Source: Promethearchaeota archaeon | GTDB taxonomy: Archaea; Asgardarchaeota; Thorarchaeia; Thorarchaeales; Thorarchaeaceae | Length of the DNA: 32,000 bases | NCBI GenBank assembly: GCA_027031765.1 | Contig: JALVPN010000040.1 | Location: 83,265-115,264 of the forward strand | Direction: 5' to 3' | Shown here: positions 6,208 through 28,441 of the stretch, piece after piece | How the letters are laid out: the number at the start of each line of letters is the position of its first letter | How positions within the stretch are numbered: position 1 is the first letter of the stretch | Made by a program: the position numbers and the translations under genes | The notes under the pieces: generated by a model | Told to the model about the DNA's origin: nothing | The model's database searches: none | Seen by the model: only the letters and a program-made list of their open reading frames with translations

Positions 6208-6314
6208 GGGCTCGTGGCGCAGCCAGGTAGCGCAGCAGGCTTTTAACCTGATGGCCGCGGGTTCAAAGAAGCGCGAGAGTTCCTCGCGGTTGGGGTATCC
6301 CGCCGAGCCCGCCA
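6208..6314 (+). tRNA. tRNA-Lys(UUU) with a 30-nt T-loop intron (6268-6297, position 59/60), CCA encoded
   Basis: Acceptor GGGCTCG/CGAGCCC, anticodon loop CT-TTT-AA, T-stem GCGGG/CCCGC. Removing 6268-6297 restores the loop TTCAAAT. Intron hairpin CGCGAG/CTCGCG and 3-nt bulges AA^G and TA^T. Confidence 0.92.
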
Positions 6315-21569: not shown

Positions 21570-21670
21570 GCCGGGGTATCCAAGTGGCTACGGAGACGGT
21601 CTCGAAACGCATCGTCGAGTGAACCGTTGGGGCAATCCCCGCGTGGGTTCGAATCCCTCCCCCGGCGCCA
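21570..21670 (+). tRNA. tRNA-Ser(CGA) with a 15-nt canonical intron (21607-21621, 37/38), CCA encoded
   Basis: Acceptor GCCGGGG/CCCCGGC, anticodon stem ACGGT/ACCGT, long variable arm TGGGGCAATCCCCG, central helix CTCG/CGAG, G73. Confidence 0.95.
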
Positions 21671-21759: not shown

Positions 21760-21882
21760 TGGTGCGGAGGGCGAGATTTGAACTCGCGAACCCCTACGGG
21801 AGTACCCCGTTGCCCGATTTTTCACTGGAACAACATCCGGGTCCTAAGCCCAGCGCCTTTGACCAGGCTTGGCAACCTCCGC
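21760..21882 (-). tRNA. tRNA-Leu(UAG) with a 35-nt non-canonical intron (21802-21836, 43/44), CCA encoded
   Basis: Acceptor GCGGAGG/CCTCCGC, anticodon TAG, variable arm CCCGTAGGG. BHB with central helix ACCC/GGGT, bulges GG^A and AC^T, intron stem TGTTGTTC/GGGCAACG. TTATAA at 21912-21917. Confidence 0.93.
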
Positions 21883-26508: not shown

Positions 26509-26614
26509 GCCCCAGTAGCAAAGTGGTCTACTGCACCTGACTTGTAAGGTTGTAGTGAGACCTGCTCGTCAAGAAATCAGGAGATCGTGGGTTCAAATCC
26601 CACCTGGGGCTCCA
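26509..26614 (+). tRNA. tRNA-Thr(UGU) with a 29-nt canonical intron (26547-26575, 37/38), CCA encoded
   Basis: Acceptor GCCCCAG/CTGGGGC, U73, anticodon stem CCTGA/TCAGG, central helix CTTG/CAAG with bulges TA^A and AA^A. Confidence 0.94.
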
Positions 26615-27004: not shown

Positions 27005-28216
27005 TCAGTCATCCATCCTTCGGGCCGCTGCTTCAAGAGCACTTACGAGGGGGAGCTGCTCCCCCGTAAGGAAGCTTATGCAGGCACCGCCCCCGGTGCT
27101 AATGTGGGTTATGGAAGACTCAAGCCCCACCCTCCGTGCAAGAACCCCAAGATGGCCGCCACCTACGACTGTAACGCCGCCGCAGCTGGCGATTGCCTCC
27201 AGCACTCTGATAGAGCCATGTGCGAATGCCTCCCGTTCAAAACAGCCGAGGGGGCCATTGGCGAAGACGACGGCTGAACGTCCAATGATTTCCTCAAATG
27301 CCTCAAGTGTCTTGGGCCCAACATCAAGGACTGGACGCCCCTGAAGAGCATCAAGAGAGCAATCGACCCGTCTGCCGTCCTGTTCAATCGCTCCATCTTG
27401 AGGGAGCACGATGATATCGGAGAATTCGGATAGCAAACGACATGCAACATCAAGAACCGAGTCAGAACCGCTGATTGCAGATACATACCTGGGTGGGACT
27501 TGTCCGTTGGCTGCGAGGAAGAGAGTTGCGACAAGGCCGCCAAGCAGTGCATGGTCGACCCGTTCAGAGCGCAGGAGTTTCTCCAGTGTCTTGACCTTGT
27601 CTTGGACTTTGCTCCCGCCGAGTACGAGAGTCCAGGGGTGTTTCGTGGTTGCTGTCACCTCCGTTAGGATGCGTATCTCCTTTTCAAGGAGCCGACCAGC
27701 CACGGATGGTAACACAACCGTGAAACCAACAATAGAGGGCTGGGATCGGTGCGCAGCGCCGAATGCATCATTGACGAACAGGTCAAAGAAATGGTACAGT
27801 TCCTGTACTATCGGTTCCTGAGCGACCACCTCAGGGGGTTCCCGCTTCAGCTCTCCCGGAAAGAAGCGGACATTCTCTAGGACGACTATTTGGCCAACCT
27901 CAACTCTTTGAATGGCCCGTTTTGCGCTCTCGCCGAAAATGTCGTCAACAAAGGACGCATTGAACCCCATCTCTCGTAGAAGACGGACGTGCGACTCCAA
28001 AGACACAAAGTCACTGGATTCGGGACGCCCCTGGTGTGCCATTAGGACAACGGCGCTCTCGGATAGTTCCTCAAGTGTAGGACAGACAGCCCTAATGCGG
28101 CTGTCATCGAGGATTTCATGAGTGTCAGGATTTAGTGAGGAGTTGAGGTCTGCGCGCACAAGAACCCTTTTGCCGGCAACCTCGACATCGTCGAGTGTCT
28201 TGAATGGTAAGCGCAA
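27005..28216 (-). CDS. pgk: Phosphoglycerate kinase
   Basis: RVLVRADLNS, AHQGRP, LENVRF, FVNDAFGAAHRSQPS, LGGSKVQDK, HISTGGGA. Start placed at TTG 28216 because the upstream extension runs into tRNA-Met. Confidence 0.97.
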   Translation of the reverse strand: MRLPFKTLDDVEVAGKRVLVRADLNSSLNPDTHEILDDSRIRAVCPTLEELSESAVVLMAHQGRPESSDFVSLESHVRLLREMGFNASFVDDIFGESAKRAIQRVEVGQIVVLENVRFFPGELKREPPEVVAQEPIVQELYHFFDLFVNDAFGAAHRSQPSIVGFTVVLPSVAGRLLEKEIRILTEVTATTKHPWTLVLGGSKVQDKVKTLEKLLRSERVDHALLGGLVATLFLAANGQVPPRYVSAISGSDSVLDVACRLLSEFSDIIVLPQDGAIEQDGRRVDCSLDALQGRPVLDVGPKTLEAFEEIIGRSAVVFANGPLGCFEREAFAHGSIRVLEAIASCGGVTVVGGGHLGVLARRVGLESSITHISTGGGACISFLTGEQLPLVSALEAAARRMDD

Positions 28217-28271
28217 CTTCTCAGTCTCCGCAGCGGTTTCCGTCGTGCCGGGATAGAAGAGGTCGAGAGGG

Positions 28272-28441
28272 TGGTGCCGCAGGAGGGCGACTCGGCCACT
28301 CCTCAAGACTCGGGGAGCAGCATTCGATCCCTCGACTTCGAGATTTCTCATCTCCGGCCAGCCATTAATATGACCCCACGGGCAACCGGAACACCGGTCA
28401 GATTATGAGTCTCGCGCCCTACCAGGCTAGGCCACTGCGGC
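28272..28441 (-). tRNA. Elongator tRNA-Met(CAU) with two introns: 59 nt at 37/38 (28345-28403) and 34 nt at 59/60 (28289-28322); CCA encoded
   Basis: Acceptor GCCGCAG/CTGCGGC, A73, anticodon stem CGAGA/TCTCG, T-stem GAGGG/CCCTC. BHB1 helix CTCA/TGAG; BHB2 helix ATCG/CGAG with intron stem GCTGCTCC/GGAGTGGC. Confidence 0.9.

Follow-up and report, generated by a model that had tools for sequence, protein, structure and literature searches.

A Thorarchaeial elongator tRNA-Met gene with two predicted protein-spliced introns and a conserved block in the canonical intron

Introduction

Transfer RNA genes interrupted by several introns are documented in Asgard archaea. A survey of four Asgard genomes, Thorarchaeota SMTZ1-83 among them, already had a separate class for multiple introns (Kaneta et al. 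2018, PMC5829648). Across three Asgard genomes, 92-95% of tRNA genes bear introns and more than half bear several, with multi-intron tRNA genes reported from Atabeyarchaeia and Freyarchaeia (Valentin-Alvarado et al. 2024, PMC11291895). In a census of 90 Asgard genomes, the focal families have 2.2 intervening sequences to each tRNA gene and the others a median of 0.86, with up to five in one gene (Goswami et al. 2026, bioRxiv 10.64898/2026.10.13.758758, October 2026). The preliminary description of the DNA studied here placed multi-intron tRNAs mainly in Thermoproteales, a statement that these three publications make outdated.

The Thermoproteales cases are treated by Sugahara et al. 2008 and Fujishima et al. 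2010, both cited in PMC11291895 and bioRxiv 10.64898/2026.10.13.758758. These accounts, as cited there, describe features also seen at the present locus: canonical introns and T-loop introns at 59/60 of ~15-35 nt, hBHBh' or relaxed motifs, and a heterotetrameric EndA. Thermoproteales belong to a different phylum, and the intron transposition proposed there has left no sign here, as paralogous copies of the introns are lacking elsewhere in the genome; a blastn-short search with both introns returned matches of chance length only.

Functional tRNA introns are known from Haloferax volcanii. The intron of its pre-tRNA-Trp acts as a box C/D RNA that guides Cm34 and Um39, and in its elongator pre-tRNA-Met an intron-dependent Cm34 modification is guided by sR-tMet. 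The wobble modification of elongator tRNA-Met is RNA-guided in Haloferax. The same is true of human elongator tRNA-Met (PMC6601510).

Here we analyze a tRNA gene of a Thorarchaeote represented by a metagenome-assembled genome (MAG) of 2.95 Mb, with 59% G+C and 95% completeness; the only sequencing run listed for this DNA is a DNA run of a hydrothermal vent metagenome, probably its source. The whole stretch of DNA analyzed, 32,000 nt long, is referred to as the window. Like the published Asgard multi-intron tRNAs, the gene carries short bulge-helix-bulge (BHB) introns at canonical and non-canonical sites, several per gene; it is missed or mis-called by standard finders, is accompanied by a probable (alpha-beta)2-type EndA and shows intron gain and loss between close relatives. 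Unlike published cases with up to five introns in one gene, it has a modest two. Thorarchaeia lie outside the focal intron-rich families of the published Asgard papers and are unnamed in the main text of bioRxiv 10.64898/2026.10.13.758758, and no account of the present gene or of a conserved tRNA-Met intron was found in PMC5829648, PMC11291895 or that preprint. A two-intron gene in a Thorarchaeote is ordinary, a further, well-documented instance from Thorarchaeia of the intron-rich tRNA genes already known in Asgard archaea.

Gene anatomy and annotation

The elongator tRNA-Met(CAU) gene occupies window positions 28441-28272 on the minus strand, 170 nt in all, and consists of three exons and two introns just upstream of pgk:

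28404..28441, minus strand: exon 1, positions 1-37, with the acceptor 5' strand, D-arm, anticodon stem 5' strand and C32-A37 including CAU
28345..28403, minus strand: intron 1, 59 nt, at the canonical site 37/38, strict hBHBh'
28384..28399, minus strand: hairpin 1 in intron 1, ACCGG UGUU CCGGU plus a flanking G.U
28371..28377, minus strand: GGGGTCA block in intron 1, invariant among orthologues
28323..28344, minus strand: exon 2, positions 38-59, with A38, the anticodon stem 3' strand, AAGUC variable loop, GAGGG T-stem 5' strand and A54-A59
28289..28322, minus strand: intron 2, 34 nt, in the T-loop at 59/60, relaxed BHB with an 8-bp inner helix
28272..28288, minus strand: exon 3, with G60, the T-stem 3' strand CCCUC, acceptor 3' strand CUGCGGC, discriminator A 28275 and CCA 28274-28272
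27005..28216, minus strand: pgk (phosphoglycerate kinase), likely true start TTG 28216-28214, GGAG 9 nt upstream

The reverse complement of the 170 nt opens with the acceptor strand GCCGCAG and ends in CTGCGGCACCA, its 3' end reading CTGCGGC-A-CCA. Excising 59 nt (minus-strand positions 39-97, window 28403-28345) together with 34 nt (positions 120-153, window 28322-28289) leaves a 77-mer that ARAGORN identifies as tRNA-Met(cat), with an encoded CCA, fully paired stems of 7/4/5/5 bp and anticodon and T loops of 7 nt each. If the 34-nt insert alone is taken out, the program reports this tRNA as interrupted by a canonical intron of 59 nt. The preliminary description had read the 170 nt as a tRNA once inserts of 59 and 34 nt are taken out, and its coordinates and lengths prove exact, the cloverleaf being restored. 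Its assignment to the elongator type, with introns at 37/38 and 59/60, is likewise backed by the fold of the spliced 77-mer and by the orthologues described below. The elongator marks are G1:C72 and the anticodon stem CGAGA/UCUCG, and the initiator hallmarks (A1:U72 and three G:C pairs at the bottom of the anticodon stem) are lacking. A54 in the T-loop is unusual, yet common to many orthologues. On this anatomy and the evidence below, the locus is very probably a functional elongator tRNA-Met(CAU) gene with two protein-spliced introns.

The gene was also said to be easily overlooked, which is borne out by the standard finders. ARAGORN misses the unspliced form, reporting a single tRNA for the whole window. 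Of the five tRNA hits that Rfam yields there at gathering score, none lies at 28272-28441; relaxing the cut-off to E<=10 brings an alignment to the 5' half of the gene alone (28441-28384), with 13.8 bits. Elsewhere in the window, tRNA hits lie at 26509-26611 (+), 21763-21882 (-), 21570-21667 (+) and 6208-6265 (+). Those exceeding 76 nt carry introns, to judge by their length, and a weak hit of 58 nt (31.9 bits) may represent another interrupted tRNA.

Annotation is further confounded by the neighboring gene. The ORF at 27005-28351 (-), 448 aa, overlaps the tRNA by 80 nt (28272-28351), and from its ATG at 28351 this longest pgk ORF reaches 26 codons into the tRNA. The Pfam PGK match begins only at residue 53, residues 53-431 corresponding to profile positions 1-379, in agreement with the earlier view that the tRNA is hidden beneath a false N-terminal extension. 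The true pgk start is likely the TTG at 28216, which gives a protein beginning MRLPFKTLDD and leaves 55 nt between tRNA and pgk; that the ORF reaches into the tRNA is an artefact of choosing the longest reading frame. Standard tools miss the sole elongator tRNA-Met gene found in the genome, and the pgk ORF is over-extended across it.

Splice motifs and proposed processing

Both splice junction pairs lie in two 3-nt bulges across a 4-bp helix, strictly so for intron 1 and in relaxed form for intron 2. In the first motif (BHB-1), the anticodon stem CGAGA/UCUCG is the outer helix, C32-U33-C34-A35 forms the central helix with UGAG at -6 to -3 of the intron, UCU:AGA makes up the inner helix, and the two bulges read U36 A37|A and A A|A38. 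The sequence AATCT is repeated at both intron 1 junctions and leaves the cut register ambiguous from sequence alone, but the BHB geometry fixes the position and places the intron at 37/38. In the second motif (BHB-2), the T-stem GAGGG/CCCUC is the outer helix, the central helix consists of an A54.G mismatch followed by U55-A, C56-G and G57-C, and an 8-bp inner helix is set off by the bulges A58 A59|U and U C|G60. The preliminary description had given each insert a BHB-like motif, which stands, with the A.G mismatch making the second one relaxed; a relaxed BHB is the rule at 59/60 among orthologues.

Folding predictions suggest that both motifs are available but, without protein, not dominant. 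The cloverleaf with both BHB motifs has -67.0 kcal/mol, against -71.5 for the unconstrained minimum free energy structure. BHB-1 has a predicted probability of ~0.16 in the full precursor, because a genome-specific pairing between D-arm and intron competes with it. The T-arm ensemble favors a shifted 3-bp register, and the predicted probability of the BHB-2 register is about 0.05; since the shifted register is favored thermodynamically, recognition of BHB-2 must depend on the tolerance of the enzyme for relaxed motifs. The competing D-arm pairing joins GGCCUAGCC (window 28404-28441) to the 3' half of intron 1, GGCUGGCC (28350-28365), on the minus strand. It forms the predicted minimum-energy fold of the precursor, is found in this genome only, and is probably a chance complementarity.

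A splicing endonuclease and an RNA ligase are both encoded in the genome. Two EndA-family (PF01974) subunits were assigned by their match to the catalytic or the structural half of fused endonucleases: the catalytic half is on contig C38 (150 aa) and the structural half at C40:172822. RtcB is encoded as well (590 bits). Asgard EndA is an (alpha-beta)2 enzyme with an L1 loop, of the type that accepts relaxed motifs (PMC5829648), and by analogy the two subunits found here fit such an enzyme, the presence of the loop being taken from that study.

These elements suggest the following course of processing. The gene is presumably transcribed into a precursor of ~170 nt, which would fold so that each pair of exon-intron boundaries lies in a bulge-helix-bulge, strict in the anticodon arm at 37/38 and relaxed in the T-arm at 59/60. 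A heterotetramer-type endonuclease built from the two EndA subunits would cut in each 3-nt bulge, RtcB would ligate the three exons, and the introns would probably be circularised. The product would be a 77-nt tRNA with a genome-encoded CCA, which MetRS may then charge.

The preliminary description further proposed that competing stems in the long intron may impose an order on splicing, such that one intron goes first. The two segments that it named do form a duplex of -15.1 kcal/mol in isolation. In partition-function folding of the precursor and both intermediates, however, the pairing probability of this rival stem is about 0, because the conserved hairpin 1 (ACCGG/CCGGU, probability 0.95) holds one of its strands. 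The rival stem is also specific to this genome and not conserved among relatives, whereas hairpin 1 is backed by compensatory changes. Removal of intron 2 hardly alters the formation of BHB-1 (0.16 with intron 2, 0.19 without), and the T-arm with intron 2 folds independently, its inner helix having a probability of 0.92 in the precursor and 0.87 without intron 1. Since the two motifs fold as independent domains, no obligatory splicing order is expected, and an order set by competing stems is unlikely.

Other CAU tRNAs in the genome

In archaea the CAU anticodon occurs in three kinds of tRNA and does not suffice to tell them apart. The gene might on that ground encode tRNA-Ile2, whose CAU is later modified to agmatidine, instead of tRNA-Met, but the remaining CAU tRNAs of the genome make this very improbable. 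The CAU tRNA at C144:85649-85725 has an acceptor stem, GGGCCCG/CGGGCCC, identical to that of the tRNA-Ile(GAU) of the genome, which identifies it as tRNA-Ile2. It shares this whole stem and 56/78 positions with tRNA-Ile(GAU); the tRNA studied here shares 49/78 and has the acceptor strand GCCGCAG. A third CAU tRNA, on contig C217 at about 56461-56571 (+), has A1:U72 and a CGGGG/CCCCG anticodon stem and is accordingly the initiator tRNA-Met. With tRNA-Ile2, the initiator and the gene studied here, all three CAU kinds are accounted for. The initiator gene is itself split by a ~30-nt intron in the D-loop; it is missed by ARAGORN and scores 24 bits with Rfam, below the gathering threshold.

A separate intact elongator tRNA-Met elsewhere, together with the lack of a doubly spliced product, had been named beforehand as what would speak against the three-exon reading. 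On the DNA side no such gene came to light: neither a scan for CAU stem-loops nor a BLAST search with the precursor within its genome revealed another elongator tRNA-Met in the 95%-complete MAG.

Orthologues, intron turnover and covariation

BLAST with the 170 nt finds an orthologue in 24/24 sampled genomes of the same family, and the exons are common to 73 further Thorarchaeota records (species representatives, searched with a pattern of exon 1 and the intron block). Judged by this sequence recurrence in family genomes and Thorarchaeota records, the tRNA gene read here is not a product of chance. From these sources, 87 full orthologous genes were extracted, 67 of them distinct; exon 1 is invariant or nearly so across the 87, and all 87, which belong to the Thorarchaeota group, have the canonical intron (45-67 nt).

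The other introns differ from gene to gene. Among the 67 distinct orthologues, 32 have intron 1 alone and lack intron 2, 28 carry an extra 30-34-nt intron at 59/60, and 7 carry an extra intron at another site (3 in the variable region, 4 elsewhere in the T-arm). Within the 35 that have extra introns, a D-loop intron is present as a third intron in 3. Four Thorarchaeia orthologues (L017, L038, L045, L055) have three introns, placed in the D-loop, at 37/38 and in the T-arm. Intron 1 is missing in one distant Asgard genome (L116), so that each insert is lacking in the orthologue of some relative. These differing complements indicate that the inserts are separable from the tRNA body.

The orthologues also settle the register of intron 2. 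One gene, L007 of genome G013, has an uninterrupted T-arm, GAGGGATCGAAGCCCTC, which is exactly the predicted spliced product and thus places the intron at 59/60. Cuts at 58/59 or 60/61 would yield AUCGACG or AUCGAAU, and every orthologue with A54 reads AUCGAAG. The turnover at this site can be recent: L078 and L040 have an identical intron 1 yet differ by the 59/60 intron, which implies recent gain or loss. The 30-nt 59/60 intron distinguishes both L040 and L021 from L078, with intron 1 identical.

Covariation among relatives supports the anticodon stem, hairpin 1 and the intron 2 hairpin as RNA structures. In a set of 64 distinct sequences, the anticodon stem is 100% paired and includes one G-C to A-U double change, the central helix of BHB-1 is paired in 99.2% of cells, and all 6 stem pairs of hairpin 1 vary on both sides. 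Over 18 structure pairs there are 98 cells with changes on both sides, and 0/500 shuffles attain the covariation score. The hairpin introns at 59/60 in 26 other distinct orthologues are 30-31 nt long; together with the present one (27 distinct genes), their inner helix is 94.9% paired, against 67.6% when shuffled (at most 73%), and each position of the inner hairpin shows between three and six pair types.

This record bears on the suspicion that the gene is a decaying pseudogene whose inserts stay in while the tRNA is supplied from elsewhere. The relaxed second BHB would suit such decay, and the 5% of the genome that is unassembled could hold a second elongator gene. Yet conservation of the exons is perfect, no mismatch mars the spliced cloverleaf, the gene is the sole elongator tRNA-Met found, the two-intron layout recurs in many species, and compensatory changes preserve the intron hairpins and BHB helices. 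Decay is exceedingly improbable. The orthologue set, being dense and differing by the T-loop intron, is useful for the study of intron gain and loss.

A conserved block in the canonical intron

Within intron 1, the sequence GGGGTCA (window 28377-28371, minus strand) is invariant in 64/64 distinct Thorarchaeia orthologues. Outside the block the intron varies freely, with indels, and the whole alignment averages 65% column identity. On this pattern of sequence conservation, the block is clearly under selection.

Pattern scans of 400 Asgard genomes extend the block beyond Thorarchaeia, with counts that are conditional on the motif. The pattern ACTCATAATC-N(8-38)-GGGGTCA occurs in 75/85 genomes of the home family, in 3/3 of family f13, 6/6 of f21 and 4/4 of f3 (Odin-like genomes of 1.3-1.4 Mb), and its reversed-pattern control gives 0 hits. 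The related pattern ACTCATAATC-N(6-36)-GGGTCRG occurs in 82/135 genomes of f9 (Loki-like), 8/14 of f26 and 3/5 of f7, and also in f6 and f25, with 1 hit in the control. Altogether, the GGGGUCA/GGGUC block is kept in at least ten Asgard families, comprising Thorarchaeia and at least nine others (Loki-like, Odin-like and others). Seven non-Thor genes were fetched without use of the motif: GGGUC is present in four of them and GGGC(U/A) in two, and the remaining one lacks an intron. Four further regions from weak BLAST hits (L112, L117, L118 and L120) have no CAU anticodon loop.

Two of the genes recovered have unusual arrangements. In L121 (genome G248, Loki-like f9), an intron containing GGGUCAGA lies 5' of an intact anticodon stem-loop, in a register like 31/32 and not on the 3' side of the anticodon, as though it had shifted from one side of the loop to the other. 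In L103 (genome G150, f21), two tandem elongator tRNA-Met genes stand ~190 nt apart, both with a motif-bearing intron and an extra D-arm insert.

The structural setting of the block is best seen in the short introns, where an A-rich terminal loop finishes with GGG on its 3' side and the 3' strand of the intron stem starts with UC(A/G)G(A). In Thorarchaeia, hairpin 1 has been added ahead of the block and a variable segment behind it. The only invariant complement of the block in cis is G30-A31-C32-U33-C34, and RNAalifold proposes exactly this pairing. It excludes the central helix of the BHB and, together with the inner helix, would make an H-type pseudoknot. Covariation is uninformative here, as block and G30-C34 are both invariant; a U-to-C change in families f5 and f18 is uncompensated.

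Several other roles for the block were considered and set aside. For a box C/D RNA in intron 1, UGAUGA-like and CUGA-like strings are present in subsets of orthologues only and in the wrong order, and a match to Rfam SNORD93 (14.3 bits, E=9.9) is at chance level. A search of the genome for a trans guide RNA for C34, by a pattern of D box and guide complementary to the anticodon region, gave two hits, both without C boxes. Pairing of GGGGUCA with the D-stem strand U8-U13 is broken without compensation in orthologues with A9, and a small ORF from an ATG ahead of the block fails because the ATG is not conserved. Nor does GGGGTCA serve as a general tRNA-intron motif in this genome: it is absent within the 37 Rfam tRNA hits, with only two matches, in their flanks, and its genome-wide frequency is 0.12 per kb.

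Compared with the functional introns of Haloferax, intron 1 is likewise a canonical intron beside the wobble C34, long retained in evolution and provided with a conserved block. Unlike in those introns, the C, D, C' and D' boxes are unconserved here, and no trans guide RNA for C34 was found in the genome. We consider it possible, though doubtful, that the canonical intron is an ancient functional RNA element across Asgard archaea, in which the conformer pairing the block with G30-C34 masks C34 and excludes the splice-competent BHB, serving an intron-dependent step. Such a step would be, for example, modification of C34 or the timing of splicing. A function of this kind would account for the presence of intron 1 in all Thorarchaeia orthologues seen, whereas the T-loop intron is found in some and not in others.

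The conserved block is a modest new lead and is more interesting than the two-intron gene itself. If it is functional, the closest prokaryotic relatives of eukaryotes would offer a case of a tRNA intron that has its own role.
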